NCBI GenBank assembly: GCA_002269645.1
Contig: NIVC01000272.1
Location: forward strand, 310,001 to 374,000
Origin: Macrostomum lignano
Taxonomy: Eukaryota
Reading direction: 5' to 3'
DNA length: 64,000 nt
The notes below the pieces were generated by a model. It saw nothing but the letters and a program-made list of their open reading frames with translations. It had not been told where the DNA came from and ran no database searches. Positions 39,721 through 61,059 of the stretch are shown one piece after another; the first letter of the stretch is position 1, and each line of letters opens with the position of its first letter. The position numbers and the translations under genes are program-made.

Positions 39721-42320
39721 CGAAGTCGAAGGCAGAGCAGAGCATCTGTAATCCTATTGCCATCCGATACAGATACAGGAGTAAAAATGTTGTTTGGTTT
39801 TGGTTGGACAGATAAATGAACATTCTAGCTCGAAGCAGACTTATCCCGAAGCCGAATCTAATTCCTTAGAACCTTGAGCACACGAAAAAAGTATGAATTT
39901 TCACTTATCAGGGTCCGCCACGAAAAGCAGAAGACCAATTTCAAGCACGTCCTATCTTTTACCCGTCCTAGCTTTTCTGCCCTAATAGACGAATTGAAAA
40001 ACGTAGGGTGGAGTCATGTGCACATTTACGAACTCAGCCATCAGCCAACAGACGCAACACCAACCCCAAGCCCCCCCCCACTCGGAAGAGGGGCCGCGGA
40101 AACGAGGCTCTTCGGCCTTGACAAGGTCTTGAAACCCAGAACGGAAGCCTTGGGCCTGTACAGAAAACTGAGCCTCTCTCTTCTCTCTCTCTCCTTGTCT
40201 CCCTCTCCCTCTCGGCCAATCTGGATTGCCCACACATGCCCGGGTGTCCAGCAACCCCTGTGCATGCACAAGCGGCGTTCTATAATATATCAGCACACGC
40301 GCTGCTCGACAGTCTTGTCGTCTCTCCCTCGCCATGGCTTTTACGAGCTAGACGGGCTGGAATTCTTTAAATTCTACGGCTCTGTTTGGTGAGTTTAAAC
40401 GCACAGCTGGTTATCGTTGATGCTTCGGCATTGACAGCAACTAGCGCTATAAATTAAAAACAACATTTCAATTTGTGTGGATTCATTTTAATGTCTTTAA
40501 TTTCATAGATTTATGGATAATAACTTTGCACTAGAACCATTTTTTGTACTGGTAGAGTAATATATTTTTAATTACCTAAGTATAAAAATGACTAGCCTTA
40601 AACTAAAGGCAGTTGTTATTGATACAGTCGATGACCGTATAAATCACAGAATAGTGTTTAATAGTAAAACGGTTATTTTTACGAGACCAAGCTCTGAGTA
40701 AAACAAGTTAAGCACCTTGGGGCCGAAACAAACCACTTTTTACGGTTTTAACGCTAAACTTGCGGGTTACGTTGGTTGAGTTCGAGCGATCGAGCGGGGG
40801 AGGTCAGTTTTTGAGTCTTTCCACTGCACTTCCGCACACATCGGATCGCGCATCCACTCTTCGGTTCCCACGCCCTTCGGGATTGATTGCCAGATTTGGG
40901 TTTGGGGGCTGTGAATTTGTCATATGCTGCTATGGGTCAACTGTTGTTTGCCCGCATTCGGCCTTCTACTATCTTATCTGTCTTATGTGTCTTTCCTCTG
41001 CCTATACTGATAATTCTTTGCTTCGTCCAGCTTAAACGCGTCTCGAAAGAACTTCCTATGCTAGTGAATTTCCGAGCCCTCTATAATTGCCCCCATTTTA
41101 ATACCCTCCTTATCGGTTCTAGCTTAACTCGCAAATTACAACGGAGATAGCGGTTGGCGCACGTGTTCGTCTGATAACACAAAGAAACTGTAAAACAAAA
41201 GCTCAGCTGTTCGAAGACAGGTCTTTTCCAAGATCCGAGGTAGCGCCGCTCGGGACCGAAAATCTTTATCCGCGTTTTTCTCTGGGGCCTTTGATGTAAG
41301 ACTTCTCTCTCGGGCCTCGGTTATGCTTCTCTCTCGTAGTCGTCTAGCGGTCTTGTTGGATTACTTTCGCGTCTTTGAAGCCTAAGAGAGCTTACAACAA
41401 GGAGATCGCTACTTTGGCTGATTCTGACTCGTGCCTGTAGCACAAATAACGAATATGAATCTCTAGATTTATTGGCGAATTGCACAAGGCTTCTAGTTCG
41501 GAAGCTTAACTCTTTCCTTCTAGGTGCCCATTTCGGGGCCGAGGCCGTGTCTATTTTATAGATCATTTGATACACGTCATCCCCCGCCGCTGATTAGCAA
41601 CGGCGGGGTGCCAAAACAGACGCAGCAACATTAGATTAGCGCGTTGCTACGGGGCGAGAGAGATAATCTGCTATCGGTTAATTGGTCGCATCAGGCGATG
41701 GTTAAAGGTCAGTTCAGGGTTCATCGTTCGAGTCGATTCGCACGTCAGACCCCTCGTGCGTCCCTCGGTGAGTCGTCCTCTTATTCCCTGGGGTCGTTCG
41801 TCACCGCTGACCTTGGCCTGTTGACCATTGCTTTATCTCGCCCGCCAGTCGGGCTTTGTGTCGTATTGCTTCTCCTGGCACCGCGCCGACTGGCTCAGCC
41901 TGGTACCTCGGCCGATTTGATATCATCTGGTTTTAGTCTGAAATCTTGGGGGAAAGTCAGAGTTAGTTTCTTATCTATAGCTTGTTTCACTTTCTTGCCG
42001 TTCTTTAATTTCTCTCACTTAGGTGTCTTATCTTTAAATTGAACTTTCGCCCCTTGCTTTTTTTGCTTCTTACTTTGCCCTTTAGCGAACTCTTATTTGT
42101 CCCAACTTTCATAATTTCTAATCCCTATATTATTCCCCCTTTTTGAAATCCTTGTGCAACGAGGATTAATCTCCTGAATCTGAAATAAAATTGCGTAAGA
42201 ATATGAACGATATAGGGTTAGAAATTAAATTTAGCCAAGTGATTAATTAATTATTAAGGTAATAATTGATAGTGCTGTGAAGTATGTCAGTTAGTTAATT
42301 TGTTGCAGCGTCGTCTTCAT

Positions 42321-42644
42321 TCATTCCTCATCCGGGGGCGCTCCGTTGGGGTTTCCCCAGACGAAGCGGCGATGCGTTTGTAGCGTAGGCCAATTGGTAG
42401 CAGGAGTGGGGGCGTAGTCGCCCCCGGGCCACTCACCTCGGGGGAGTTTTATGACGCCCCCTTCGGGGTCCGAAGTCCCCACTGCTACAGAGCGTCCCCC
42501 GTCGAGGTTTTCTGGAGTTACTTGTGTCTGGGCGTCCGCTTTGTAGCATGGTTGCCCCTGTACAGAGACATCTCTGAAGCGGAGGCCTGGTTGCCTTTGA
42601 TATGCATCAAGGGCCGTGTAGGGGCGCCATCCGCGGCCGGCCAT
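42321..42644 (-). CDS. Gypsy accessory ORF107 (unknown function), copy A1
   Basis: Intact 107-aa ATG ORF; homologs at 50723, 55954 and 60146. Confidence 0.8.
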   Translation of the reverse strand: MAGRGWRPYTALDAYQRQPGLRFRDVSVQGQPCYKADAQTQVTPENLDGGRSVAVGTSDPEGGVIKLPRGEWPGGDYAPTPATNWPTLQTHRRFVWGNPNGAPPDEE

Positions 42645-42936
42645 TACGCTGGAATGATTTTTTCTAAGTTAGATTCTGTGTGGCAATGTACAGCCTGAAC
42701 TATTTTAATGTACGCTAGTGGATTTCAGGGGCCTCCGCTGTTGTTGTTTATCGCCCTTTCCCTCTTGGGGGGGGGTTTGGGGTCCGCGGGCCGATCGATT
42801 TTTTATTAGGGGGGGTTCCCTCCACTGTGGCTGGTATAAGTTTTAATTGAGAGGGGGTCCCCGGCGCTGGCAAGTGTTGGATATAGAATTTGACTGCTTA
42901 TACTGTCTACGCTTTTACGGGATTGACGTTGGCACT

Positions 42937-43176
42937 ATGTCGCAGCATGCTGTGGAGCAATTGTCTAGCTTACTCTCAAGGATGGATCGGCGCTTATCGG
43001 CCGTGGAGGAGCACGTGAGGGAGCTATCCCATCAAGCTCTAGCGACGGATTCTGGGCTCCGAGCGCTCCGAGGTGTGCTGGGCGGAGTGGGCGGAAGCGG
43101 ATTTCTCCTGCTCATTGTCTGCGTTTTAATTGTGGCGTTTTGCTGCCGGTACCGCTATCGGCCCCTATCTGCTTAA
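42937..43176 (+). CDS. Antisense 79-aa coiled-coil / GGVGG / TM / Cys-basic small protein, copy A1
   Basis: ATG at 42937; homologs at 51334 and 60796. Confidence 0.8.
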   Translation: MSQHAVEQLSSLLSRMDRRLSAVEEHVRELSHQALATDSGLRALRGVLGGVGGSGFLLLIVCVLIVAFCCRYRYRPLSA

Positions 43177-43509
43177 TATGGGAACCTGCCAGTGAATTAA
43201 GTAACTATTATGCGAAAGGATTGACGAAAACATTTTTTATTGTGGAAATATATAAGCATTTTTAGTATTTGTTCTATTTAACTTTTATTTTTAAAAACTG
43301 CCGTATGCTACAGGTCTAAGCTATGATTTATTATGCGCAGAATCATGCGTGCGAACTAATGTTACTTTATACTACAAGCCATATGCGTGCTACTTTCTGG
43401 TGTTTCTGTCCATCTTTGATAGCACTACTACGTTATACTACTACTGTGTACGAATAATCAAAAATAAATTGTCAGGTGAAGCGTGAATTTGTCCGCTTAA
43501 TTGTTAAAT

Positions 43510-43972
43510 TTGGATTCCACATAGCTCTGATGTACTGGCAGAAGGGATCCTCCTTCTGTGCGTCCTTCAGTGCCTGGAGGCATGGTATTGGATGCTTGAT
43601 TGTGACATAGCTGATTGTCTGCCTCTGGTCTTCGTACAGCCTTGATAATGCATCCGGTACTGCGTGTTTGACCGAATCTCCGGGCACGTACTCAATTTGT
43701 ATCTGAAATTGCTGAAGGTATAGCAGCCATCTGAGAATCTGGTTACTGTGGAGAATTTTCCCGGTGAGCAGTCCTCTAAGCGGGGCGTGGTCTACTCGCA
43801 GTAGCGTGGGTATTTGTGCCGCGTATAGAAACTGTTCGAATGCTTTGAACGCATGGTATACTGCTAGAAGCTCTAAATTAGTGATAGCGGATCTCGTTTC
43901 GGCATCCCGCAGCTGCCTACTGGTGAAAGCTATCGGTCTTTCTTTCCCTTCTTCATCTATCTGTGACAGCAT
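43510..43972 (-). pseudogene. Gypsy pol RNase H fragment
   Basis: RPIAFTSRQL...ELLAVYHAFKAFEQFL...VDHAPL...RWLLYLQQF.IQIEYVPG...DALSR. Confidence 0.92.
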
Positions 43973-44329
43973 GGTTTCCTATATTATTCCCCTTTTTGAA
44001 ATCCTTGTGCAACGAGGATTATTCTCCTGGGTCTGAAATGAAATAGTTATAAATGTAGTTACAAATGTAAGTATAGTGTATGTATAGTGTAGTTATCTTA
44101 TACGACACACTAACCAACACTAGCGCTCTCCTAAAAGAAATATTGAATGCAAAGTCCAATTCTTCCTTAGCCTTGGCCATTTATCTCTGCAAAGTATATT
44201 TGACTGAATTCGCCGCAAGTCCATACGCATTAAAAACGAGTAAGCAAATTACCGCAATCTAATACGCAGATAATTCATCGCGAAAGAACGCAAACGATTG
44301 TAACAGCGCTTAAACAGATTCTCTGCGCC

Positions 44330-44645
44330 ACCACCACTAATCATGCTCGCTAGAAAATCCTTCAAACCACCACCACGATGCAGTTTAAAGTATAAATAAA
44401 CAAAACCCATAATTCACAGTGCAGCCTTGGTTCTTGAATAGCAAAACGCGAATATTCCCCATTTCCCCCTCCACAATTCCATATAAACCGACGTATTAAC
44501 TCACACGGATTTAACCCCAAGGAATCGAAATACCCCCCTTCCTAGAGCCCCTCCTACCCAACATAAAACCCCTCACCCATAACAAAACCCAATGAGAACC
44601 CGGCAAATTTAAAGTATCGGTATTCACGATCAGAAAATAATGCTT
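44330..44645 (-). pseudogene. Adenain-like cysteine protease fragment (Polinton PRO), frameshifted
   Basis: Manual translation: FLIVNTDTLNLPGSHWVLL / YFDSLGLNP / AIQEP...ILYFKLHRGGGLKDFL. Confidence 0.75.
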
Positions 44646-45240
44646 CCATTAAATGCAGTATTTTCGACTACCACCAGCAAAAGACGTGGCACTCCGCTCG
44701 GAAACAGATTTTCGTGCGTATGGCTCAACGACCCTTGCGGCATTGTGAACGTACCCAATGATAAATTGCGATGAGGGTACAAGGCACTATGGGTGTTACA
44801 GTTAAAGAACACGAAGGCACTTGGGTTTATGAATTGAAAGAGGGCGTTGTTTGAGCAGCTCCAAATTGGCATGAGCACGAAGCTCGCCCTTATATTTCTT
44901 TACCCTTAAGGGAATTGAAGTTTCTAGCAAACAAGGTGTACGGTAACATTTTGCCCCTATGGCACGTAGACTACTTTTAGAAGAAAATAAATATATAAAT
45001 AATGCAGCATAGCATGCAGCATATGCAACAATGGGTCTTCAAACCATGTGCATGGGCTCCAATCACACTGGCAGATGGCTGAACATACCGCAAACGAAGC
45101 TCCGCACTCTGAATCTCAACCTCGTAATCCTTTAACACTGCCTCACCAATCTGTGCGGCACTTAACACGAATTTGCTCTTTGCCGGTAGTAGCTTTATCC
45201 GCAAAGGCGTCTTTGACAACAAATACCGTGGCCCTGACAC
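44645..45240 (-). pseudogene. Polinton major capsid protein internal fragment, split by a solo LTR
   Basis: PRYLL...LRIKL...YEVEIQSAELRLRYV.PS..VIGAHAHGLKTH + SALYP...FTMPQG...ENLF...PRLLLVVVENTAFNGS. Confidence 0.8.
44794..45030. mobile_element. 237 bp solo LTR
   Basis: TGTTACA...TGCAACA termini; 5-bp TSD ATGGG (44789-44793, 45031-45035); removing it restores the capsid reading. Confidence 0.9.
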
Positions 45241-45244
45241 GTTC

Positions 45245-45510
45245 ATAACACGGGACACCAGTTTCGCGGCCAAACGTCCCCCCCACTTAGTTGTAGGATC
45301 CGTAGCAATCTCTCGAGCTCTTGCTACGAGTTGTTGATCGGCCTTTTACGCTCTGCCACGTCCGAGTGCTTCTCGTATGCCAGGTCGTGTAAGAGACACA
45401 ACTTATCGAGCCGATTCTTCCCAGTATCGCCCCGCGCCAAACGTTCTCTCAATCTGGTCTCGTGGCCGCAGAATTGGTAACCCCCCGGCAAATGAAGCTC
45501 CCCTGGGAGA
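45245..45510 (-). pseudogene. Parvovirus VP1u-type phospholipase A2 domain protein (Polinton/adintovirus PLA2), frameshifted
   Basis: ELHLPGGYQFCGH.TRLRERLARGD...NRLD..C..HDLAY, then ADQQL after a frameshift. Confidence 0.85.
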
Positions 45511-45699
45511 TGGTAAGCGCACTCGCTTCTTCTTCTGTCGGCCTTGTGTTCCCACCCCACTTAATTGTACTAAAAAAACAAACTGCATTTGCTTATACAC
45601 ACAGCGGTTAAATCCACGAGCAGTATATTGTATTAAAAACCACCACCAATTCCCACCACCGACCGACGGGCTCCGGGCGCGAGCAGCATCAGATGTTAG

Positions 45700-46194
45700 T
45701 GCTGCCCATGCCGCCCGTCTCGCGAACCGCCACCGGCTCCGGTTGTCGTGCCACACCCCCGGCAGCTGGCCCTCGCGAACTCGACCGACTTCTACCGGGG
45801 GCGTGACGCAGCGCTCCAGAATCAGTTGAACCACGCTGGTGGCACACAGTAGATAAACTTTCTCATCTGACGTGTTGTGCAGGATCACGCGGAGTTCCCC
45901 GGTATAGTTCGGGTCAACCACGCCACCGTGCACATTGAGGCCTGGGTTGGCCCAACTGGACCGGCTCGCTATCCGACCATAGGTGCCCGGCGGCAGCATC
46001 ACCCGGAGGCCGGTGCAAATAATGGCTGTGTCAAAGGCCTCCACAGTGCGGTCTTCGCACGTGGCTAGGTCATAGCCCACCGACCCGGCCGTAGCTCGCC
46101 GAGGCATCACTGCCCCGGCATCCGTGAGCACTATGCGCCGCAGGACCGTCGTGCAAGCGTCGGAGCTCATCGTGGCTGCGGGATCATAGTTCAT
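45700..46194 (-). pseudogene. dut: dUTPase with disrupted motif 5
   Basis: AGSVGYDL, TGLRVMLPPGTYGRIASRSS, GVVDPNYTGEL; the C-terminal RGxxGFGS motif is out of frame/degenerate. Confidence 0.88.
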
Positions 46195-46438
46195 CTTATG
46201 CTTAGCAGGACCGTCGTCCTCTAAAATAAGTCTAGTACTACCTTCGTAATCCACGTCCCAATAAAAAAAACTAAGCCTAGTACTAATCCCCTGCACTGCT
46301 ATCATTTGCCTAGAAAAACGAAAAAATACGAAGAGAAAAAAAGAAAGACGGATTCTTGCATATACATTCGATAATTGCGCGCATATATTGTGAGCAGAAA
46401 AACATAAACAGACAGAAAATAAAGACAGAGAAAACAAG

Positions 46439-48022
46439 TCAAGTCAACCGCCAATGACCAAATAGGAGGGATGAGTAGGGATCGTGCCAGGCTCGCTTCG
46501 TTTCGAAAAAGCTAAGCGCCTGCTTGCGCTGCTCAAGAAGATAAATCATCTGTCGTCGCGAGGTAATCGTCCGCATCGTTACAGGCCCCAAAACTCGATC
46601 CTTCAACACACCCAAAAATACATTGTGCTTCATACCTCTTACAATCGACTTCGACACGCCCTTGCAACGCACAATCTGACAGAGGCTTTCCTTTGCATAC
46701 ACCATTGAATAGTTTTTCGGACGTAGAAATGCAAACTCCAACGGTGTACAACCGGAAACTTCATCTTTCCAGGCCATTAACTTCCCTTTATACTTTGTTG
46801 TATAAAGCGGATGAGAAGGTGGATAATTACTAGTGTCTAACACACCGCACTCCACCAAGTCTTTAAATAATGTCTCCTGAGGACTCGTCTCCGGGTCGGC
46901 CATAACCAATGCCAGGATCAAACTATCCGTATCTCCACCAAGCACGCGGGCAGAAGCAAGCGACCGATGGCATTGAATCCTTGAATAGAAAAACTCGTAG
47001 ACAAATGTTTTCGCAAGGTCCAGAATAGCGCTACCAATCAGAATTGGCTTGTTTAGCAATACTCGACGAGGAGTCAAACTCACGCCCGCTAGACGATCTG
47101 TATACAGAATCACGTCCATAAATTCCTCTTTAGCGAAATACGTTTCCAACTTCTCGGCAGTAGTACACATGCGATAGCTGAGTCGGTCTCGAACTCGCTG
47201 CAGAAACTTGCCGTACACAGCATTGTTCAATAGTTTAAAGAAATCTCGATCGAAATCGCTAGTCGCCTCAGACCGCGGACGAATATTATGTTCAATGTAT
47301 TCCTGTAGGATGGGACCTTCTACGAATTCGAGAACACGATTAATACGCGTCACGCACATGCCTAACTCGAGGTAAAGACGCAATGCTCGATGATGTACAA
47401 TGTACCCTGTTTTATGCGTAAAAGAGCCAATTAGTTTCCTTGTCGGAGAAGTGAATCGTTTTACGTCCTCGTATACCTCCGCAGTCCTCTTCCTTGGATC
47501 AAGCTGGCGTTGCAGACAAACCCAATCCTGCTTCATATGCTCGATTAAATAGGCACTATCAATTCTTTCATGGCCAATAGCCAGAGGTAGATCGGCAGTT
47601 GAATCGTGCAAAAACTTTGGGTAGTACAGATCGACATTCAATAACGTCCCTCGTCCATTCGAGCAATAGCTAGACAACCAAGCCAAAAACTTGCTCGACT
47701 TGTTCGGATTTTCCAACTCAGCTGCCTCATCATCAACTGATAGATTTTCAATCACTTTACGGGGCAACCAACGATAGGCCTTATACGGTAGTGCCTGCGC
47801 CATACAACTGGCATAAAGAGAATTAGCATCAAGGTAGGCCAAGTGAGTGCCATACGGTGCATTCCGCCGTAGTTCTCTTAAATCGTCGTCGTCGTCGTCC
47901 AGCCGACGACGGCATTCTTCTACCATTGGATTGTTTGCCGTAGTAAGATGGCGAGTGCCGAAACTGAATCCACCTCGAATCGAAGCTTCAACCTCGGAGT
48001 ACATACGAGCGTCTGTAAACAA
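46439..48022 (-). pseudogene. polB: Family B DNA polymerase of Polinton type, C-terminal half
   Basis: SIRGG, YLDANSLY, FFKLLNNAVYGK, GGDTDSL, KDE and RPKNYS...KGV motifs; truncated at the LTR C terminus at 48024. Confidence 0.93.
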
Positions 48023-48023
48023 C

Positions 48024-49735
48024 TGAAGAGTTGATTCGGGAGGTGATCAGTCTCCCGAAAACTCCCACTTCCAGACACTTAAGCCTGGGAACAAAATAAA
48101 GTGATCACTTACTGTTGCGGGCTCCTCTTCTGTGTAGTGCGGGTTCTCCGAGCTCGTTTCTTCAAATCCTCTTCTTCTCCGGAGGAATCTTCTTGAAGTC
48201 TTGAATCGGCCGAATGAGAGCGTGACGATCAAATCAGGCGACGTCGCAGTATTTCTCGAATGCAAATCAATATAGGCCTTAAGCTCAGTAATCAATATCA
48301 ACGATGCGCCTTGTAATAAAATCTACTTTCTGTAACAACAACGAGGTCCTCCAAGAAGGGCGTCTTCTTCTAGAAATAACGGAATCGGAGTCGTGTGCTC
48401 CTATCGGTTAATCTAGGATAACCAAAATCAATCAATCGATAATCCTCTAGGGGTATCGGAATCGGTCCGCAGATCCTATCCAATCCCTTAGGAAAATGGG
48501 AGGCCTCAAATTCAATGAACTCAGTCAAATCGACTGGACAGTAGCGGCCGGCAATAAATCGCTCTCAAAATCAATAACAAAGGCTCAAGCAACGGCTCAC
48601 CAATTGGTTTACTTTTCTCTCAGAGATGTAGCCTCGCTTAGCTGTTCCAGCAAGCTCCAAGATCTTTAGAGGCTGCTCCGAGTCTGAGATTTTTAGCTCG
48701 GATTTTGGCTTGTATTTATAGGAAAAATTGTTGAGAGACAGCTTATTTTTAGTAGGTGACAGTTTCGCGCTTTGGAAATTTGACCCCTATGGAATACATT
48801 AGCTTTGAGCGCCGATACCATATTCGGAGTTCTAAATTTAAATGTTGCAAAAGATGGTCACTTGTTGTTTTCGTGGTCTTTAAAAATAGAGTATGACAAT
48901 TTGCAATTTTTGTAACATTCGAGTTTTTCGCATCTTCATGTTGCTACTTATAGTAGTCTACTTTGTATCTTATTTGGAGATCTCTACAATATCTCCCTTT
49001 TTTACGAAAAATTCGTCCCGAATTTATCACGGGTGATTTTAGTTGTACATGAAGAATTAAACAGGTCCACGGTTTATAAGAATTTAATACTTATTGTTTA
49101 TTTGCGAAGTTACTGTGTATATGCAGATTAAACATGGTGGCCAGCACGATATAGTGTATTCTGTAACAGCACAGTAATGAGAATAGTGACCGAGCAATAA
49201 GAAAAACAGTAATTTATTGTTTTTATCTACAATCGTGTTGGAGCCTATGGGGTATGGGGACTGGGGTTAGAGATGTTCGGCTAGGAACGGTGGAAGAGTC
49301 TTTGCACCCTGACCGTTAATACTGCTATGGGGTAAATGAGGAATTGGAGTTGGTGGTGGTCGTGGGATTCGGCGGCTTCTAATAGGTGATAGTAGACATC
49401 TTGTGGGGTTAATAGGGTTTCGGTCAGGGTGCAGCGCCGGGCCGTTTGCAGGAGACTCCGCCGTGCTTCATGTAGTTTGGTCGGTAGTGGCCAGTCTTGT
49501 ACGTTGGCGGAGATCTCCAGGGCGGTGAGGGCTTCGAGATCGTGGAGTGTGAGCTCCGGTTGGAAGTCCTCCCGTCGGACGATTTCTGCGGCCGGCGCTT
49601 CCAAGGAATTTGTACAGGTTGGGCAGTATGTTATGCCCCGCCGCCCCAGCCTCTGCAGGCAGCTAAAACAGCTCCAGTGCCTGGAGTTGCACAGCTTTAT
49701 TTGCGGGTCGTCCCCTCAGAGGCTGCATGTAGGTC
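48024..49735 (-). mobile_element. Gypsy-like lineage C, copy 1: RING ORF remnant, PPT, 965 bp LTR (48024-48988)
   Basis: TGTAGAG...CTCTTCA termini on the minus strand; PPT AAAAAAGGGAGA; TATAAATA at 48713-48720; same ends at 56442-56806. Confidence 0.8.
49281..49730 (-). pseudogene. 5'-truncated RING-family accessory gene of lineage C
   Basis: In-frame upstream PQIKLCNSRHWSCFSC...CPTC, plus a C-terminal domain homologous to the ORFs at 57077 and 58016. Confidence 0.8.
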
Positions 49736-50722
49736 TTCTCTCTCGGGCTTCGGTTATGTTCCTCTCTCGTAGGCGTCTAGCGGTCTCGTTGGATTATTCT
49801 GCGTCTTCGAAGCCTAAGGGGAGCCTACAACGAGGAGATCGCTACTTGGCTGATTCTGACTCGTGCCTGTAGCACAAATAACGAAAATGAGTCTCTTTAG
49901 ATTTATTGGCGAATTGCACAAGGCTTCTAGTTGGGAAGCTTAACTCTTTCCTTCTAGGTGCCCATTTCGGGGCCGAGGCCGTGTCTATTTTATAGATCAT
50001 TTGATACACGTCATCCCCCGCCGCTGATTAGCAACGGCGGGGTGCCAAAACAGACGCAGCAACATTAGATTAGCGCGTTGCTACGGGGCGAGAGAGATAA
50101 TCTGCTATCGGTTAATTGGTCGCATCAGGCGATGGTTAAAGGTCAGTTCAGGGTTCATCGTTCGAGTCGATTCGCACGTCAGACCCCTCGTGCGTCCCTC
50201 GGTGAGTCGTCCTCTTATTCCCTGGGGTCGTTCGTCACCGCTGACCTTGGCCTGTTGACCATTGCTTTATCTCGCCCGCCAGTCGGGCTTTGTGTCGTAT
50301 TGCTTCTCCTGGCACCGCGCCGACTGGCTCAGCCTGGTACCTCGGCCGATTTGATATCATCTGGTTTTAGTCTGAAATCTTGGGGGAAAGTCAGAGTTAG
50401 TTTCTTATCTATAGCTTGTTTCACTTTCTTGCCGTTCTTTAATTTCTCTCACTTAGGTGTCTTATCTTTAAATTGAACTTTCGCCCCTTGCTTTTTTTGC
50501 TTCTTACTTTGCCCTTTAGCGAACTCTTATTTGTCCCAACTTTCATAATTTCTAATTCCTATATTATTCCCCCTTTTTTTGAAATCCTTGTGCAACGAGG
50601 ATTAATCTCCTGAATCTGAAATGAAATAGCGCAAGAATATGAACGATATAGGGTTAGAAATTAATATTTGTCACGTAATATCTTGATTTAATGTAGGTTA
50701 TTTAGAATTTAAGTTAGCACGA

Positions 50723-51046
50723 TCAGTTGTTATTTGGGGGTGCTTTGTTGGGGTTGCGCCAGACGAACATGCGGTGCGTCTGGAGCGTTGGCCATTCGTA
50801 GTCTGGGGCGGGGACGTAGTCGCCCCCAGGCCATTCTCTTCTGGGGAGTCTAATGACTCCCCCTTCGGGGTCCGATGTTCCAGCGGCCACTGAGCGTCCC
50901 CCATCAATAATTTCCGGAGTCGCCTGGGTTTGGGCGTCTGCCTTGTAACAGGGCCGCCCATGTATGTTGACGTCAGTAAAACGGGTGCCTGGTCGCCTCT
51001 GATAAGCATCGAGTGCTGTATAGGCACGCCACCCGTGGTCAGCCAT
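50723..51046 (-). CDS. Gypsy accessory ORF107, copy A2
   Basis: Intact 107 aa, ~75% identical to copy A1. Confidence 0.8.
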   Translation of the reverse strand: MADHGWRAYTALDAYQRRPGTRFTDVNIHGRPCYKADAQTQATPEIIDGGRSVAAGTSDPEGGVIRLPRREWPGGDYVPAPDYEWPTLQTHRMFVWRNPNKAPPNNN

Positions 51047-51333
51047 TGTGCTGGAATGATTTTTAACTGTATTGGTTCTTATTTGGCAATGTACATCCTT
51101 AGCTACAATGTACGCGGTTGGGTTTTACGGGCCTTCGCTGAGGTTGTTTACCGCTCTTGCCCCTACTGGGGGTTTTGGGGTCCGCGGACTGATCGATTTT
51201 TTATTAGGGGGGTTCCCTCCACTGGGACTGATATAAGTTTTAATTGAGAGGGAGTCCCCGGCGCTGGCGAGTGTTGGATATAGAATTTGACTGCTTATAC
51301 TGTCTACGCTTTTACGGGATTGACGTTGGCACT

Positions 51334-51573
51334 ATGTCGCAGCATGCTGTGGAGCAATTGTCTAGCTTACTCTCAAGGATGGATCGGCGCTTATTGGCCG
51401 TGGAGGAGCGCGTGAGGGAGCTATCCCATCAAGCTCTAGCGACGGATTCTGGGCTCCGAGCGCTCCGAGGTGTGCTGGGCGGAGTAGGCGGAGGCGGATT
51501 TCTCCTGCTCGTTGTCTGCGTTTTAATTGTGGCGTTTTGCTGCCGGTACCGCTATCGGCCCCTATCTGCTTAA
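51334..51573 (+). CDS. Antisense 79-aa coiled-coil/TM small protein, copy A2
   Basis: 4 aa differences from copy A1. Confidence 0.8.
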   Translation: MSQHAVEQLSSLLSRMDRRLLAVEERVRELSHQALATDSGLRALRGVLGGVGGGGFLLLVVCVLIVAFCCRYRYRPLSA

Positions 51574-52259
51574 TATGGGAACCTGCCAGTGAATTAAGTA
51601 ACTATTATGCGAAAGGATTGACGAAAACATTTTTTATTGTGGAAATATATAAGCATTTTTAGTATTTGTTCTATTTAACTTTTCTTTTTTAAAACTGCCG
51701 TATGCTACAGGTCTAAGCTATGATTTATTATGCGCAGAATCATGCGTGCGAACTAATGTTACTTTATACTACAAGCCATATGCGTGCTACTTTCTGGTGT
51801 TTCTGTCCATCTTTGATAGCACTACTACGTTATACTACTACTGTGTACGAATAATCAAAAATAAATTGTCAGGTGAAGCGTGAATTTGTCCGCTTAATTG
51901 TTAAATTTGGATTATTTGGTTGGGTTTTATGGGTGTTTTCTTACCTACTGATGACACTGCTTTGACGACCATTCATCTTGAATCTCCGGGTCTTGAAACA
52001 GCGGTCTGACGATCGTCTCCATTCGGGGGAAGTCTCCTCGCCGATATAGACATCGTCCAAATAGTCAAGCTGAGCGTCGTACATCTGTTGTGTGTGATAT
52101 AAGTCAGTGCTTTAATTATTTTAATCAGGTATGTATGGGTAATTAATAGTGAGTGTTTCTACTGTTAAGTGCAGCGCATACCAACTGAGTACATATACGA
52201 GTATAAAATGAATCTTTTTGGTCTTTGTACTCTCCCCCCCCTTCCCATGACATCAATTG

Positions 52260-54344
52260 TCACGGAAGGTGGGTCTTGCTCCTTAGGTTGTATTTCTTCC
52301 TGGCCGTGTCCGCCGGCGCTCCATCTTCTACTTGGATGCCGACATCCATCGAGAACTTCTGTTTCTGCTGTCTTTGCAGGCGGTTGGGATCACACGGCCG
52401 GAGGTCGGGGAGGAAGACTTGCGCTTCTGGTGAGGCCACCGGTTTCAGCCTGTCCACATGTACCTGGAAGGCTGTTTGCGGTGGTTCATCTGTCTTTTTT
52501 ATCAGCACCGAAGTGGCACTGTTACATTTAACCACCTCGTATGGTCCAGAAAATTTAGATTGATGTTTTGCTTGTCTCATTGGATTTTGGAGCATTATCC
52601 TGCTTCCTACTGTTATCGTGGTCGGAACTCTTCTGTTGTTTGCCCTTGTTGTGTTTTTCTTTTGAGCTTCTTGTAGGTGGTGACGGGCTATTTCTCTGGC
52701 TAGGGTTATAGCCTCTTGCATTCGTTCCGCGTATGCGGGTTCGTCTGCGTATCGTACGAATTGCAGTTGTGTTGTTAATTCTGTGGGCATTAGTGGCTTC
52801 CGGGCGAACACTAACTCGAATGGTGAGTATTTAGAGGACGCTTGTTTGGCTGTGTTTTAAGCGTGGATTATAGCTTGTAGGTATTGGTGCCAATTGTGAG
52901 GGTTCTCCGCCGTGTAATGTCGTAGCATATTGTGGAGAGTGGAGTGAAGGCGTTCCACATGGTTTGCTCGAGGGTTGTAAGGTGACGTTAGAATGTGCTG
53001 TATCCCTAGAATATTTAGGGCATCTGTGAGTAGTGTCGCCGTGAAATTGGTGATGTTATCCGTTGAGAGTTCTACGGGTATCCCGAAGGTACAGAACACT
53101 TGGAAGAGTGTTTCGGCCGTGGTTTCGGCTTTCAAGTCCGGTATTGGGAACGCTAAGGCAAACTTGGAGAAGCAGCACGAAACGGTTAAAAATGTGTTAC
53201 CGACTCGTTCCTTATCCTCGCCGGTGTCATAGGGCCGACCAGATCCACTGACAGTTTGTCCATCGGTTTTAGTGGTATCTCCGACATCTGAATGAGGCCT
53301 TGATGCATCCTGCCGGACTTGCTTTTGGCACAGTCCATACAGTTGTCGCAGAATGCTTGTATATCTCGGACCATGGAGATCCAGAAGTAATGTCGCCGGA
53401 TCCTCTCCAAGGTCTTCTTGACATCTAGATGTGCGGCCAAGGGTAGGGCGTGCAGTGAGTAGCAAATTGTGTCGCGATATTTAAATGGCAGTACTATCTG
53501 CTGCGTTTTTTCTGCCGTTCTGTGGATAATGCCCAGAATTTCAGCATGATCTGTTAGGTGCCGTTCAATATGGCGCTTCTATTTTGAGTCCAAATCTTCT
53601 CCGCCAGGTTGCTCGTTCCACATAGCTCTGATGTACTGGCAGAATGGATCCTCCTTCTGTGCGTCCTTCAGTGCCTGGAGGCATGGTATTGGATGCTTGA
53701 TTGTGTCGGTTTGGCAAATTTGCATTTCAGCAACCTGAGTTTCATTCCGTGCTTAGTGAGTGCTGATAGCGTGTCTTTTATCGTGTTGAGGTGGTCTTCA
53801 AAGGTCTCATTAAACACTAATAGGTCGTCCACGTAGGTGGAGACTCAATGTATGCCCTGTAAGATTATGCTGACTGCCCTTGATAGCGCCGCAGGCGAAG
53901 ATTGTAACCCCATGGGTGCTCTAGTGAACACATAGGTTTGTCCATCCGGGGTTTAGATGCCGCAGTATTTCTGGCTTTCCTCCTCTAGGGCTACTTGGAA
54001 GAATGCTTGGGCCATATCCAACGTGGTGAAGTACATGGAGCCTTTGAGCTTAGCTAGCAGGTCGGGGATTCTGGGCATGGACTGTCTTTCAGGCACTAGA
54101 ATATAATGAGGTCCCTAAAGTCGACGCAGAGACGGTAAACAGGGTTAGCATTGGGCGATTCTGCTTTCTTTTTTACCAGTAAGATTGGCGAGATGTATGG
54201 AGTTGCCGCTTTCTTTATTATCCCTTGGGCTTCCATCCTATCGATGGTTTTCTGTAGTTCTCCCATTAATTGGTATGGGATGGGATATCTTTTGTAAAGC
54301 TTTATCTCTATGTTGGGCTTGATGTGTAGCTCGTGTTTCGCCAC
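52260..54344 (-). pseudogene. Gypsy pol (RT and integrase) with stops, frameshifts and an RNase H deletion at ~53703
   Basis: Motifs as listed for copy A2; ends RKKYNLRSKTHLP, no chromodomain seen. Confidence 0.9.
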
Positions 54345-54349
54345 TTCTT

Positions 54350-56441
54350 TTTATTAGATTCGGATATTTAAAGTGACTTGACAGTTGATCACTTATCTTA
54401 AAGCTGCTTCTGTCTGCCCTTCTAATAGCTATCTAGGGGTTCCATTGTTCTTTTCTGCCTCGCCCTTCAATGCGCCTGGGCATTTCATAAATTTATAGCT
54501 ATCTTCTAACTTAGGGCAAAAGTTCAGATTTCTAACTCATATGATTGCCCCTTTTTTGAAATCCTTGTGCTAACAAGAATTTGGTTCCTCTAGGCGGTGA
54601 CTAAGGCGTGGTGCCAGTTCCTATTTCATCAAATATAAGCAGTTAAAAATCTGCAAAGGGTATACGCGCTGTCTCTGGGGCCTTTGAGTTTTTGTTCTCA
54701 CTTTCGTAAGATAGATGTCTTGCGGTCTAAGGTTTGTATAGCTCTAACTTCTTCAATCAGGCCGTCGGAGAAAACCGTATAAACTGACGGGATCTCCTAG
54801 TATCTAAGCTGAGTTTGACTCTTTCTAGGATTTGCTCTGCGCGACAATTAAGACAAATAACTGTATTAAAGACTTAGATTTGTGCCAACTGGATAATCCA
54901 GAGACTAATTCAAAGGGAGCAATTCGAGATCGAAAATGCGCAAGAAAAACGAAGCGCCGGTCCAGTTTGAGATGGGCGTCTATTTATACCAATTAGCATT
55001 TTTGGCCCCCCCGCCGCCGGTGATGTGTCTCGCGAGGTTAGCAACGGCGGGGAGTTTTAAGCAATAACAATCTGGGACTCAGTCCCCTAGTTGTACATGG
55101 ATTTAGTTAGTTCTAGTAGGTTGCTAAGTGTGAAGGTTGGAGATTATTCGGGGTTTCGCAAATCTATGTGTTGAGTTGGATAAAATCTAGGATAGAAAGG
55201 TTATATAAAACGAGCTTAATTTTCCGTCTCTTAACTCTGTCCATGGATGATTAAACAGCCCTCTCTCTCTCCCTCGGTTGTCAACTACTTCGGGTTGATC
55301 TCGCCTTCTTCGGCCTCTTCAGGTTGGATTGGAGTCCGTGGGTGGGCCGCACATTTTCCTCCCTCTGGGTGCGCCAGAAATCTGCTGCGTGCCGCGTGCT
55401 GCGTTGTTCCCTAAGTCGGGCTGCTACTTAATTTACTTCTCCGGCCGGTTTGAGTGCCGTTGTTCCTGCGGCGGGGTGTTGCTGCTCACTGGAATGGGAG
55501 GGGCTTAATTAGAATCGGTCCTTCTTATTTGTCTTGATTTATTGCCTTATTGCTGCTTCTGTTTGCCCTTCTAATAGCTATCTATGGGTACCATTGTGCT
55601 CTTCTGCCTCGCCCTTTGCTGCGCCTGGACTTTTCATAAATTTCTATCTATCTACTAACTTAAGGTAAAACTTCAGATTTCTAACTCTAATATAATTCCC
55701 CCTTTTTTTCGAAATCCTTGTGCGAACAAGGATTTGGGTTCTTTATGCTGGGACTAAATCGCGTTGCCGGTGCGTATTTCATCAAATATAAGAGGTTAGA
55801 AATCTGCAAAAGGTAGTGAACGTTGCATTAGGGGTAGAAGAGGATGTGCTAGATAAGTGGTTGTGTCAGAGGATGGGTATTCTTCGAGCAAAAGTTTCAA
55901 GCGTATAGTTTGTTTTGTATATGTTGCGCCGAGGCCATTTAGTACTATTGATATTAGTCCTTGACCGGGCGGTCGCCTATCTTCCATAGATATAGGCGGT
56001 AGCCCTGCGGTGAGGGCCGTGGCCTAATGGTGACGGCGGCCTCATACGGGCCCCCGTCTCATGGAGTCTTTCTTGGGGCCAGGATCACCCCCCAGTCGTT
56101 ATAGTCGGCGGCCGTTTGTTTAGCCATGGAGTGGCCGCCATCGATATCGTACTCGGCGACCTGTGTTTGTGCGTCTTTCTTGACGCACTTCCGAAGGTGG
56201 AGGTCTCCGTCCACAAAAGCCTGGCCAGGTCGCCGGGTGTAAGCCTTTTCTGGTGTGTAGGCGGCCATCTTCTTTGTGCGGAGTGTGTGCTGGAAAGAAA
56301 TAAGCGAGAGTATTCATTGATTATCGCGTCTGGGGGTTTGGCGTGTGTTCTCAGCTGCCCATCGTATTCCTTAGTGGGACTACTGTACATTGGTTCTATC
56401 CTCTGCGTACATGGGGTAGCGGGTGCGGCGGAACGTGCGGG
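54350..56441 (-). mobile_element. Gypsy lineage B pieces: ORF107 region, PPT, LTR (~54661-55690), second PPT and partial LTR (54350-54660)
   Basis: Homologous to 58880-60640; TATAAATA at 54981-54988. Confidence 0.8.
55954..56268 (-). pseudogene. ORF107 homolog B1 with one in-frame TGA (Trp to stop)
   Basis: Reads through as ...RKTP*DGGPYEAAVTIRPRPSPQGYRLYLWK. Confidence 0.8.
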
Positions 56442-57076
56442 TGAAGAGTTTGATCGGGTGGTGATCAGTCACCCGAAAACTTCCACTTTCAGACACTTAA
56501 GCCTGGGAAGCCTCAAAACCGTTTTTTATGAGTTCACGAAAGGAATTTTATTATTTGACAGGTGGGGTTTTTGAATAGAAAAGGGTGAGACTTGGGTTAC
56601 ATTCAGGTTAACATTTACCATATTTGGAAGTTCTAAAAATAGATGTCGAGAACCGGTTTTTTCGAACAATAGCATAGTCACTCGCTGTTTGCGTGATATG
56701 ACTGGTATTACTAAAAATAGAGTATGACACATAGCTATTTTTAAATTTGTGTTCATAATTTTATGTTACTACTTTTAGTAGGCTACTGTGTTTGGAGATC
56801 TCTACAGTATCTCCCTTTTTTACGAAAAATTCGTCTCGAATTTCAATCGAAATTAAGTAAAAGCGGACAGAGGTTTTCATTTATTGCAGTGGCAAGTAAG
56901 TATAGAACGTACAGAACAATGAAAAGTGGTGATGAGTATATAGTCGTAGATATAGTAGAGGTTAAGTAAGGTAGTGTACAGAACACGCAAGAGGCACTAA
57001 ACAAGAATAAGCAAGAGCAATAATTAGTGAAGTCAATACGTCGCAGAATAGAAGCAGTACATAACGAGTGCGGTAG

Positions 57077-57676
57077 TTAGGCAATGAAAATGTCGTCAAG
57101 AACGGATTTCAGCCGTATTATCAACGCCGCCAGAGGCCCAAACATGATCTGCAGTGGAGTATATGCAGTGGACTCGGTGCGGTTCAGGATGGCGAGGTAG
57201 GCCTCCATCTCGGTCGTAATTGTCGCATCTAGTAGTACGTCCCGGCCGATCCTGAGCATATCGTCCCGGGCCCTGGCTTGGGCCATCGTAACGGGCCATG
57301 ACTTGATGGCGCGCGCCAATTCCGGCGTAGTCAGTCGCGGGATAGAGTCAGCATCGAGCCATAGAGCAGGCTCATACGGGATCGTGGCCGTAATGGCAGT
57401 GGTGGTCGAAAGAAAATTCCAACCAAATTGAACACAGTAGCCGATAGCCCGACAAGCCAGACTGCGCAAGCAGCTGTTGCAGACCCAATGGCCGTCGGAG
57501 CACAACTTCACCTGCGGTAGCCGTCCACACAGGACACACCACACTCTGTCCCGTCGACATATGGAGCAATGTTGGAGTTCCTCCCTGGCGGCGCAGGTAC
57601 GGCAGGCCATATGGCCCCAGGCGCAGGTGGAGACCATGGCGTGGGCCGGATCAAGGCAAATAGGGCACTCAGACAT
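57077..57676 (-). CDS. Double RING-like zinc finger protein (199 aa), putative E3 ligase
   Basis: CPIC...CAWGHMACRTC...CSIC and CVLC...CSDGHWVCNSC. Confidence 0.8.
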   Translation of the reverse strand: MSECPICLDPAHAMVSTCAWGHMACRTCAAREELQHCSICRRDRVWCVLCGRLPQVKLCSDGHWVCNSCLRSLACRAIGYCVQFGWNFLSTTTAITATIPYEPALWLDADSIPRLTTPELARAIKSWPVTMAQARARDDMLRIGRDVLLDATITTEMEAYLAILNRTESTAYTPLQIMFGPLAALIIRLKSVLDDIFIA

Positions 57677-58015
57677 GATGATATAAATAGAGGCAAAAGC
57701 AAAACAATGGAAGATGGAACTCTTAGGAATTACAGAAAGATGTGTGAAGGCATAAATCGTAAGTGAATTTCGCGTGTATATATATATGGATACGTATCGC
57801 GTTTTAATTGGCTTGTAGTCACTAAGTTTTAATTGGTGAAAAATAGCGCATTCTCTTCTTGGGCCGGCCTGTGTTGGTCTCGAATATTGTTCGGGGTTGG
57901 CAGGTAGTAGGATGGTATGTTAGAAGAAGACGTAAGTGTAAGCATTTAAATTTTATGGAGCTATGTTCCTAGTATACTAAGGTTTTAATTGTGAGCGTCC
58001 GATTTGTTGTGTTAG

Positions 58016-58600
58016 TTAGAATATGTCGCGTGTCAGTTCTCGTGTTTTTTGTGTGGGGCGTGCCATGGGCCATATCAGATGTTGTATTGCCACGTATTCC
58101 GTGCATTCTGTCGCATAGAGGAAGTCAAGGTAGATTTCCTCGGTTGTGGTGTTGTCCGGGTGTATGACACAATGGCGCATTAGGTCGAACAAATACTCTC
58201 TGTGTTTCTGACGGTTGAACGGTATCGGCCATGTTTTTATTGTCAGTGCTAGCGCCCGTGCGGTCATGTGGTCCATAGCTTCTTTAGTTAGCTGTATCGT
58301 CGGCAGGTCGTCTCGTGTTTGGTCCCAGAATTCCGTCGTGATGGGTGTCGCACAAGTGATGCAATTTGGACTGTTGGTACGCCGGATATTGTTTGCACAT
58401 TCGCGGCACACCCAATGTTGATTGTGGCATAGTTTTATTTGAGGTGTCGTGGCACATACTTGGCACCGGGTGGCTGGCGCTCGACATAACGGGAATTTAT
58501 CGATCGCATCTGTCGTACAGCAGTGATAGCAAAATTGATGGCCGTTATGACAGTAAACGAATGGCTCGATGTCCTCTTCGCAGCAGACGATACATTCCAT
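58016..58600 (-). CDS. Double RING-like zinc finger protein (194 aa), putative E3 ligase
   Basis: CIVC...CHNGHQFCYHC and CQVC...CHNQHWVCREC...CITC. Confidence 0.8.
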   Translation of the reverse strand: MECIVCCEEDIEPFVYCHNGHQFCYHCCTTDAIDKFPLCRAPATRCQVCATTPQIKLCHNQHWVCRECANNIRRTNSPNCITCATPITTEFWDQTRDDLPTIQLTKEAMDHMTARALALTIKTWPIPFNRQKHREYLFDLMRHCVIHPDNTTTEEIYLDFLYATECTEYVAIQHLIWPMARPTQKTRELTRDIF

Positions 58601-60145
58601 AACTGCAATTTTAGGAGCATTATAATTATATCGCCTTATAAGATATAATTATAATTATATCTTCATCGTACATATCGCCCTGCCAATTTGTCAATTCACT
58701 GTGCTTTAATAACATAGTTAGATCCGCATGTCGCTTAATAAGTATGGGGAGTACAGCGCAATGAAATGGGAGGCATGGTAATTCGCATGTTGATAGGTAT
58801 CGTAAAAGACGTTGCTGACGACGTTTTAACGGGAAGAGTATTAATTGGTGTCTATTATGATGTGCGTACTATATGCGTCTTTCTCTGGGGCTATACGCGT
58901 CTTCCTCTGGGGCCTTTGAGTTCGTGTTCTCACTTTCCTAAGATAGATGTCTAGCGGTCTAAGGTTCTTACAGCTCTTAGTCTCTCCTATCAGGCCGTCA
59001 AAGGAGACCGTATAAACTGACGGGATCTCCTAGTATCTAATCTGAGTTGGAGTCTCTCTAAAATTTGCTCTATGTCACAGTTAAGGCAAATAATCGATTT
59101 GAGACTCGGATTTCTGCCAACTGGATAATCCAGAAACTAATTCAAATGGAGCAATTCAAGATCGAAAAACTGCGCAGGAAAAACGAAGCGCCGCTCCAGT
59201 TTGAGATGAGCGTCTATTTGTACCAATTAGCATTTTTGGCCTCCCCGCCGCCGGTGGGGTGTCTTCGCTTTGTTAGCAACGGCGGGGGGTTTTGAGCAAT
59301 AACAAACTGGGACTCGGTCCCCTAATTGTACATGAATTTAGTTAGTTCTAATAGGTTGCTAAGTGTGAAGGTTAGAGATTATTCGGGCTTTCGCAAATCT
59401 ATGTGTTGAGTTGTATAAAATTTGGGATAGAAAGATTATAGAAAAAGTGCTTAGTTTTCCGTCTCTAAACTCTGTCCATGAATGATTAAACAGTTCTCTG
59501 TTTCTCTCGGTTGTCAGGCAGCTTGGGGTTGATCTCGCCTTCTTGGGCAGCTTCGGGTTGGGTAGGAGTCTCTAAGTGGGCCTTACGTTTTCTCCCTCAG
59601 GGTGCGCCAGAAGATGCCGCGTGCCGCGTTGTTCTCTAAGTCAGGCCGCTGCTCAGTTTGCTTTTCCCGGCCGGTTTAGTCGCCATTGTGCCTGCGGCGG
59701 GGTGACGCTACTAACTGGAATGGAAATAGGCTTTATTAGATTCGGCTATTTACATTGACTTGACAGTTGATTAATTATCTTAAAGCTGCTTCTGTTTGCT
59801 CTTCTAATAGCTATCTAGGGGTTCCATTGTACTCTTCTGCCTCGCCCTTCACTGCGCCTGGGCTTTTCATAAATTTCTACCTATATTCTAACTTAGGGTC
59901 AAAACTTCAGATTTTTAACTCTTATATGATTCCCCTTTTTTCAAAATCCTTGTGCTAACAAGGATTTGATCAATCGACATCAGGGCTAAACGACATTGCA
60001 GGTACTTAAATTATCAAATATAAGACTTTAAAAATCTGTAGACGAGTCAAACGTCTCGGGACGTAGATAGTTAAAGGTGTAAAGAGGCGAAACCTGGGAA
60101 ATTAATTGAGGGAAAACAGTTCACAGTCGTATCTAGGAGCCGCAT

Positions 60146-60466
60146 TTAGTCATCTTCAAATTGAACGTTGCCGCTTCTGGCCCATAGATACTGACGATAT
60201 CCCTGCAGTGTGGGCCAGGGTCGAATGGTAATGGAGGCCTTGTAGTCGCCTCCCCTCCACGGTATCTCCGTGGGGGTCAACTCGCGTCCCCACTAGGCGT
60301 CGTTGTCAACGGTTTGGGTGGCCACTGAATGGCCCCCATCTATGTCACTCTCGGCGACCTGTGTTTGCGCATCCTTTTTGATGCACTTGTGGACGTGGAG
60401 ATTTACGTCCACAAAGGCTTCGCCGGGTCGCCGGGCATAAGCTTCTTTGGGTGAGTAAGTGGCCAT
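60146..60466 (-). pseudogene. ORF107 homolog B2 with one in-frame TAG
   Basis: MATYSPKEAYARRPGEAFVD...KKDAQTQVAESDIDGGHSVATQTVDNDA*WG...PWRGGDY...WPTLQGYRQYLW (manual translation; absent from the ORF track). Confidence 0.8.
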
Positions 60467-60795: not shown

Positions 60796-61059
60796 ATGTC
60801 TGAATTCACGGTAAGGCGCTTGATGCGTCTAGTTAACGATCTAAAGGAGCGGTTCCGGGCCGTGGAGGGCCGCTCTGTGAGCCTGGAACACCGCCTCCTT
60901 CATCTCGAAGCTCGAGTGGCTGCTCAGGGTGGCGGTTTGGATACTCTTCGCAGCTGGCTGGGCGGAGTTGGGGGCAGCGGCCTTCTACTGTTTCTGGTGC
61001 TGGTATTAGTGCTGTTCTGCTATCTGCGTCGCCAACGCTACCAGGGCCTACCTGCCTAG
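60796..61059 (+). CDS. Antisense 87-aa coiled-coil/TM small protein, lineage B
   Basis: Shares LGGVGGSG-TM-FC-basic tail and position with the lineage A copies. Confidence 0.8.
   Translation: MSEFTVRRLMRLVNDLKERFRAVEGRSVSLEHRLLHLEARVAAQGGGLDTLRSWLGGVGGSGLLLFLVLVLVLFCYLRRQRYQGLPA

Follow-up and report, generated by a model that had tools for sequence, protein, structure and literature searches.

ORF3, an optional accessory gene of envelope-carrying Ty3/gypsy elements in Macrostomum lignano, carries a credible LC8-binding motif

Four short homologous open reading frames (ORFs) in a 64,000-nucleotide stretch of the Macrostomum lignano genome (GCA_002269645.1, contig NIVC01000272.1, positions 310,001 to 374,000; hereafter the window, which supplies the coordinates below) raise the question of what a gene of about 107 amino acids (aa) does at the 3′ end of a retrotransposon. 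We call this gene ORF3, and its copies in the window A1, A2, B1 and B2. Our answer is that ORF3 is a real, selected, protein-coding accessory ORF borne by a Ty3/gypsy element, and that its product may be an adaptor dimerised by the host dynein light chain LC8, an optional accessory protein of an envelope-carrying clade of such elements. To this tentative reading of the function we give a probability of roughly 0.4. An earlier, sequence-only reading of the window had placed four homologous ORFs just upstream of the polypurine tract (PPT), and they are present there, all on the minus strand:

42321..42644, minus strand: ORF3 copy A1, open over 107 aa, with motif 1 at 42522-42536
50723..51046, minus strand: ORF3 copy A2, open over 107 aa; its motif 1, at 50924-50938, has Ala at +1 (a poor LC8 anchor)
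55954..56268, minus strand: ORF3 copy B1, 104 codons, interrupted at codon 70 by a stop; motif 1 spans 56161-56175 and the second motif is degenerate
60146..60466, minus strand: ORF3 copy B2, 106 codons, interrupted at codon 58 by a stop; motif 1 spans 60359-60373
60311..60328, minus strand: second LC8-type motif of B2 (SVATQT), 15 residues past motif 1

Amino-acid identity is 75% between A1 and A2, 59% between B1 and B2, and 37-40% between A and B copies, and 143-245 nt separate the stop of ORF3 from the PPT-like tract in the four copies. Every element of the shared residue pattern that had been described from the window is found in all four. Both A copies are intact and each B copy has a single nonsense codon, the sites being different, as had been reported.

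Is ORF3 a gene at all? When the M. lignano genome was searched with A1, 43 of the 52 scored candidates were matches; these are not independent (in the first 30 loci, 11 pairs share 97% identity or more along stretches longer than 2.8 kb). Nei-Gojobori counts were made on 16 natural copies in 45 pairs, with pairs of fewer than 8 differences and most cross-lineage pairs left out. The nonsynonymous proportion (pN) was below the synonymous one (pS) at P<0.05 in 43 of these 45 pairs, and the rate ratio dN/dS lay between 0.07 and 0.45 in 40 of the 41 pairs with a computable dS; the sole exception, at 0.85, compares the broken B1 with its nearest open relative. Deep pairs within a lineage have pS of 0.5-0.8 versus pN of 0.13-0.27, with synonymous sites near saturation. 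At the motif discussed below, all four Thr codons and both codons each of Lys, Asp and Gln are used, and therefore the constraint acts on the protein. Purifying selection and a genome-wide family thus bear out the proposal of a novel gypsy-borne accessory ORF. The stretch could instead be a conserved cis-acting RNA or DNA element by the PPT, or it could only mirror a frame that overlaps it; it does adjoin the PPT, has no peptide or transcript support and has no homologue outside the host. However, the excess of synonymous change and the codon usage at the motif speak against this, as does the fact that the neighbouring antisense ORF and ORF3 do not overlap, and we find such a non-protein explanation hardly credible.

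The sequence-only reading had recognised no known domain in ORF3, and this stands, since Pfam, PHROGs, ESM Atlas, PDB and profile searches gave no family or structure match. Pfam returned no match and PHROGs matched 0 of 15 members; the best ESM Atlas entry (0.87) had few features in common with ORF3 and was no homologue, and a glycerol kinase in the PDB (E 0.027) was dismissed as a chance match. Word searches limited to near lengths, with A1 and with a 15-row alignment (422 candidates), gave no homologue for A1 and none at E<=0.01 for the alignment. Among viral contigs 21 matches to the ORF3 pattern were found, none of them confirmed as a homologue, and 300 candidates from metagenome contigs also yielded no confirmed homologue. 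The profile search that had been suggested as a check was run on 1.84 billion proteins and returned three matches, just one of which (P0003) is a true relative, itself a Macrostomum lignano gene model. The other two, P0004 and P0005, are tandem-repeat proteins of bacterial type whose score was summed over 3-5 weak stretches, and we rejected them. P0003 is a UniRef model labelled Macrostomum lignano in which parts of a B-type ORF3 are fused to an unrelated exon labelled as ion transport, and it looks like an annotation artefact.

The carrier of ORF3 is a GAG-ENV-POL Ty3/gypsy element, which is a known kind. In the polyprotein of copy L039 a Gag zinc knuckle (262-277) is followed by a fusion glycoprotein (794-996) and then by protease (PR, 1243-1333), reverse transcriptase (RT, 1574-1737), RNase H (RH, 1809-1941) and integrase (IN, 2048-2220), the pol positions being those of Pfam. 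The envelope (env) segment between gag and pol matches PF24664, a viral fusion glycoprotein of glycoprotein B (gB) or class III type, at E 3.6e-7 and 29 bits versus a cut-off of 27. Paired long terminal repeats (LTRs) of 872-1042 bp with 5-bp flanking repeats were found in four of the seven loci tested; they are 99.1-99.9% identical, and the insertions are therefore recent. The same four loci have a TGG-initiated tract like a primer-binding site (PBS), which we take to resemble the 3′ end of tRNA-Glu. At L040/L051, L042/L052, L038/L053 and L050/L054 the LTRs end in TATA...TATA, not TG...CA. Behind pol comes a 3′ cassette in the order ORF2, an antisense membrane ORF standing head-to-head with ORF3, ORF3 itself, PPT and LTR. 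The sequence-only reading was thus right about the gypsy element, and had overlooked the envelope, which is seen in full-length copies, and the two adjoining accessory genes. The env segment has 152 matches genome-wide, with open frames of 2400-2900 aa in many further families; in the seven of these that were sampled, the ORF3 profile had no match.

How ORF3 is expressed is suggested by the sequence before its ATG. A YAG lies 4-21 nt upstream of the start in 14 of 15 copies, in differing phases (the count has no chance control), and a CAG stands immediately 5′ of the ORF2 ATG in five of five copies (likewise without a chance control). From this we infer that ORF3 is made from a spliced subgenomic RNA. 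That ORF3 might be one in-frame exon within a longer protein is disfavoured, because the distance from YAG to ATG differs in phase. Four read runs, whose RNA status is a guess, span ORF3 and the putative acceptor on copy L106, with no canonical splice joint among the matches listed; as their RNA status is a guess, they weigh neither for nor against splicing.

Could the product of ORF3 bind LC8, as had been proposed from its TQT-like motifs? With positions counted from Gln as 0 in the 15-row alignment, Lys at -6, Asp at -4, Thr at -1 and Gln at 0 are fixed in all 15 rows, whereas -5 and -2 are variable. The fixed -4, -1 and 0 with variable -5 and -2 fit the published position rules for LC8 (PMC6607443). 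Four of the 16 invariant columns of the alignment make up this K-x-D-x-x-T-Q core. The pentapeptide DAQTQ had been called invariant, which is true of the four window copies; genome-wide DEQTQ, DAPTQ and DASTQ also occur, and only the core is invariant. Eleven of the 15 rows pass the LC8 rule (T-Q-[T/V], a polar residue at -4, no internal Pro) at motif 1. A Gln at motif 2, spaced 15 residues from motif 1, is present in eight rows, all of lineage B; SVATQT is peculiar to B2 within the window, as had been noted, but a second TQT motif belongs to the whole B lineage (8 of 8 aligned B rows). Among 5000 shuffles 1.4-3.9% had one strict motif and no more than 0.08% had two, and 14 control ORF pieces of the same elements (8720 aa) had five motif matches, none common to all lineages. 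The composition of ORF3 is rich in Pro and Gly, and its FoldIndex is -0.15 to 0.00, zero or negative in 12 of 12. AlphaFold2 with the 15-row alignment gave a mean confidence (pLDDT) of 40.6 with no residue above 70, a level that cannot separate disorder from shallow data. The host has LC8 to offer, with 110 matches to the dynein light chain family among 128 candidates, including eight canonical LC8 loci and many divergent paralogues. Motif 1 is a credible LC8 site, because it lies one position (of six) from a measured site in the silencing factor Panoramix. Taking together the three readings in which it does so, ORF3 probably binds LC8.

Several observations weigh against an LC8-dimerised adaptor. 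Four of the 15 rows break the rules at motif 1 (two with Ala at +1, including A2 of the window, and two with Pro at -2) and are without Gln at motif 2, yet they are under purifying selection. Position -3 is Ala in 14 of 15 rows and +2 is Thr or Ala in all 15, both disfavoured, in that LC8 prefers, without requiring, a large residue at -3 and Pro, Asp or Glu at +2 (PMC6607443); the second site of Panoramix also has Ala at -3 yet binds LC8 (PMC7919418). Twelve of the 16 invariant columns lie outside the K-x-D-x-x-T-Q core, and the S-V-A-x-x-T of motif 2 persists in copies that lost its Gln. TQT peptides that do not bind are common, making up 31 of 53 phage-display hits and 12 of 19 predicted peptides (PMC6607443). 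Our motif pattern was chosen post hoc, with the sequence already seen, and therefore the chance figures flatter the LC8 site; the ORF3 copies in the motif counts are, besides, related and not independent. The YAG count lacks its control, we found no peptide or transcript evidence for ORF3, and a sister lineage D, whose pol is 96.6% identical to that of lineage C over 1239 aa, keeps the antisense ORF and is without ORF3.

Part of this evidence would suit a different protein, one that is a small beta-rich folded domain or that folds on another partner, T-Q being structural or serving some other ligand and the likeness to LC8 sites being incidental. The off-motif invariant columns, three invariant aromatics in the C-terminal half and the constraint on copies with rule-breaking anchors would all be expected of it, and the AlphaFold2 model, of low confidence, places strands at 22-26, 32-37 and 54-58, so that F23/D25 may face K35/D37 in a hairpin. 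However, at its pLDDT the model shows no fold, the Pro/Gly-rich composition and a FoldIndex of zero or below point the other way, no family or structure was matched, and the second anchored motif of lineage B is unlikely by chance. We judge a folded ORF3 somewhat unlikely, and it is the chief rival of the LC8-dimerised adaptor.

ORF3 is optional within its element clade. The LTRs of lineage D are 99.5% identical (one full copy examined, without a matching target-site repeat), and ORF3 is also absent from lineage E and from one B copy. Lineage C (C1674) has ORF3 and no match to the antisense ORF. The ORF3 profile had no match in 18 stretches (L115-L132), of which seven env-bearing families (L123-L129) are not confirmed to reach the PPT and L121, an unrelated element, is uncounted. 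Elements without ORF3 may be complemented in trans. In C1674 (L081, about 1360-1427 and 1902-1970, element strand) a 68-bp pre-PPT repeat, 82% alike, flanks ORF3; recombination between such repeats is a possible route to gain or loss of the module.

On the LC8-dimerised reading, ORF3 would be translated from a spliced or trans-spliced subgenomic RNA with the acceptor-like YAG just 5′ of its ATG, and the chain alone would be largely unstructured. A host LC8 dimer would grip the D-x-x-T-Q-V strand of two ORF3 chains, and in lineage B, with a second site available, two LC8 dimers could do so. The LC8-bound ORF3 would be a parallel dimer, and its remaining conserved patches (Y-x-R-x-P-G-x-x-F-x-D, D-G and three aromatic positions in the C-terminal part) would be offered bivalently to a partner from the element or the host. 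LC8 would here be a dimeriser of ORF3, not a tether to the dynein motor.

Trafficking was the other role first suggested, in which ORF3 couples a particle or pre-integration complex to dynein via LC8 for transport. The interaction of foamy virus Gag with LC8 has been tied to capsid transport to the centrosome (PMC3705263), and our carrier has an envelope and may therefore have an entry step. However, clients and the dynein intermediate chain share the same LC8 grooves, ORF3 is a separate ORF without sign of packaging, and the sister element lacks it. Published accounts portray LC8 as a hub for dimerisation and not as an adaptor for cargo (PMC6607443, PMC7919418), which weakens the trafficking role; dimerisation is the likelier of the two, and dynein transport seems to us very unlikely.

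The neighbours of ORF3 in the cassette bear on what such a dimer might be for. In the window they are found as follows:

42937..43176, plus strand: antisense ORF, 79 aa, head-to-head with A1; helix, Gly-rich transmembrane segment, Cys-Cys, basic tail
51334..51573, plus strand: antisense ORF, 79 aa, head-to-head with A2
60796..61059, plus strand: antisense ORF, 87 aa, head-to-head with B2
61534..62129, minus strand: ORF2 remnant, broken, in two frames

The antisense ORF has 31 genome matches and a dN/dS of 0.14-0.54, indicating purifying selection. All six copies compared have a single Gly-rich membrane segment (Kyte-Doolittle 19-mer 2.58-2.81), Cys-Cys and an Arg-rich tail. All start with M-S and have tails of 10-16 aa, and they show neither the N-myristoylation motif nor the amphipathic tail of FAST proteins, of which palmitoylated variants exist (PMC11952523). 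The product may be either FAST-like or a tail-anchored protein. Plant Retand elements are a known case of antisense ORFs lying between pol and LTR (PMC11963269).

ORF2, also found at L039:999-1778, L049, L115, L116 and L119, encodes about 230-260 aa and is under purifying selection. Sequence searches, including Pfam PF02902, found no homologue, and the fold search alone was informative. The model has a pLDDT of about 70 over residues 131-230, and with residues 111-260 the top 21 of 48161 chains (VIA-align) were all of the CE clan (Z 11.2, rmsd (root-mean-square deviation) 3.0-3.4 over 140-141 residues, identity 7-12%); Foldseek concurs on PDB and on viral models, with E 2.9e-4 to 1e-3 in one of the two libraries. 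ORF2 is thus predicted to have a Ulp1/SENP (CE-clan) fold. Proteases of this clan use a His-Asp-Cys triad with the catalytic Cys at the start of the last helix. ORF2 looks like a pseudo-protease, because in all five rows there is no Cys at positions 225-256, around the last helix as mapped by secondary-structure order. A TQT in ORF2 of lineage B was considered as a shared LC8 motif and rejected, as it is not conserved in other lineages. ORF2 is possibly a more tractable finding than ORF3.

Perhaps the cassette counters silencing. ORF3 would then act as a decoy for LC8 or, once dimerised by LC8, compete with nuclear repressors that depend on LC8, and ORF2 would be a dead SUMO- or ubiquitin-like-protease fold that shields or traps SUMO marks, so that heterochromatin on the element is blunted. 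The fold match of ORF2 would suit this, and LC8 co-purifies with SFiNX, with the SetDB1 complex and with Woc/Zmym2/4, the Zmym sites being conserved from fly to mammal (PMC7919418); ORF3 is also optional and patchy, as many counter-defence genes presumably are. However, SFiNX is limited to Diptera (PMC7919418), a host with 110 LC8-family matches would be hard to titrate, ORF2 stays where ORF3 is lost, and a common fold, here at a pLDDT of about 70 and 7-12% identity, shows no function. Such a role is improbable in our view. Given the association of LC8 with SetDB1 and Zmym-type complexes, it is the boldest reading left. In its fullest form the carrier would resemble a complex retrovirus, with an envelope and a 3′ cassette whose modules target host hubs: ORF3 would imitate the LC8 sites that nuclear repressors carry, ORF2 would trap SUMO marks with a dead SUMO-protease fold, and a FAST-like antisense membrane protein would serve cell-to-cell spread. 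We hold this out as an outside chance; if true, the cassette would be the first retrotransposon-encoded suppressor to act via LC8 and SUMO, both of them pillars of the co-transcriptional silencing of transposons.

The four window copies of the element are 5′-truncated remnants that keep the 3′ cassette and LTR, and a polyprotein search of the window found only RT, RNase H and integrase pieces, with no gag or env. The remaining parts are:

41267..42144, minus strand: PPT and 3′ LTR behind A1, the LTR starting TATA near 42129
49727..50580, minus strand: PPT and truncated 3′ LTR behind A2
54661..55709, minus strand: PPT and 3′ LTR behind B1
58892..59941, minus strand: PPT and 3′ LTR behind B2, the LTR starting TATA near 59926
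52275..54347, minus strand: RT and integrase fragments, broken, from a related element; their aa identity with a full-length copy elsewhere is 72-88%
43517..43999, minus strand: RNase H fragment from a related element

Arrays of RING-finger ORFs (Sina_RING matches) occur on the minus strand at 57077-57919, 58016-58648 and 49281-49715, and also at L031 and L033, behind the integrase of a different env-bearing element. We rejected them as members of the ORF3 cassette, since they end in another PPT and a TG-type LTR; at four loci, R-type ORF3 copies are found 13-20 kb downstream from the env piece of the RING element. The window also holds Polinton/adintovirus-like pieces on the minus strand (45403-48046, 63621-63923 and about 45300-45460), with a protein-primed DNA polymerase B, a dUTPase and an adenovirus protein X-like ORF, and a host-type exon of 457 aa with KY-like immunoglobulin domains at 32821-34194 on the plus strand.

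The accessory genes of LTR retrotransposons are mostly without known function, and few counter-measures of animal retrotransposons to host silencing are known. If LC8 binding holds, LC8 is hijacked not by viruses alone but also by an endogenous element of an invertebrate, which devotes a gene to it; and an LC8-binding helper with two other unusual helper genes would bring the carrier nearer to a complex retrovirus than to a simple retrotransposon. Should binding fail, the literature searched still has no GAG-ENV-POL element whose three-gene cassette includes a SENP-fold protein, and the neighbours of ORF3 point to SUMO and membrane fusion. That literature, with subscription papers and Repbase outside its scope, gave neither a retrotransposon accessory protein with an LC8 motif nor an account of this three-gene cassette, and, among the matches listed, no Ulp1 domain in an LTR element. 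The available passages of PMC12801592 make no mention of extra ORFs, and its supplements, outside our scope, hold family annotations.

GAG-ENV-POL errantiviruses with an ENV of herpes simplex virus/gB type are known from Nematoda, Bryozoa and Platyhelminthes (PMC13524379), and our carrier shares with them the Gag zinc knuckle, the class III-type fusion glycoprotein, the PR-RT-RH-IN order, paired LTRs and a PBS. The available passages of that work do not mention accessory ORFs after pol, whereas here there is a 3′ cassette of 2-3 kb with up to three extra genes and LTRs of TATA...TATA form; the one Macrostomum element described there differs from our carrier in PBS and LTR length. Accessory 3′ ORFs as such are already known in gypsy elements, from CERV (PMC10309623) and the bdelloid ORF3s (PMC5408684). 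We had considered bdelloid LTR elements as a parallel for RING ORFs and rejected it, as the passages of PMC5408684 do not mention them. CERV, of the C. elegans element Cer1, is likewise a novel accessory protein of a gypsy-type element, made from a spliced mRNA with a 3′ frame and without homologues beyond the host phylum; compared by description, it differs in having 517 aa, exons shared with gag, folded multimerising domains and a role in genomic RNA export, with no dynein or DLC-1 mentioned in the excerpts of PMC10309623, while our ORF3 has 107 aa and its own ATG. The sORF1 and sORF2 of the MDG1 group (PMC11952523) are also small accessory ORFs under purifying selection, and our antisense ORF resembles sORF2 in its transmembrane segment and juxtamembrane basic patch. 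However, MDG1 elements are without env and their sORFs lie mostly upstream of gag, whereas our carrier has env, and its membrane ORF runs antisense, starts without an MG motif and ends in a tail of just 10-16 residues; ORF3 has no membrane segment. ORF2 has a parallel in the Ginger1 and Mutator DNA transposons (PMC2836005), mobile elements with a Ulp1/SENP-type domain, but there the domain is fused to the transposase and detectable by Pfam; ORF2 stands alone in an LTR element, misses PF02902 and has no Cys at the last helix.

As a candidate LC8 ligand, ORF3 resembles viral clients in its short T-Q-anchored motif and differs from them in that their motifs sit in larger proteins of known role. 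Rabies P is one such client. Others are E4 of human papillomavirus and rotavirus VP4 (PMC6607443) and foamy virus Gag (PMC3705263). The closest counterpart is Panoramix, whose DAGTQVR binds LC8 with a Kd of about 140 nM in tandem with a TQT site, NAATQTE, so that two LC8 dimers are bound (PMC7919418). Panoramix is a dipteran host silencing factor and a measured binder, its order of TQV and TQT is the reverse of that in ORF3, and in lineages A and C the second site is missing or degenerate; we claim no kinship. Like Panoramix, however, ORF3 has a D-A-x-T-Q-V core, and in lineage B it too has two close sites in a short stretch, which in ORF3 may be disordered.

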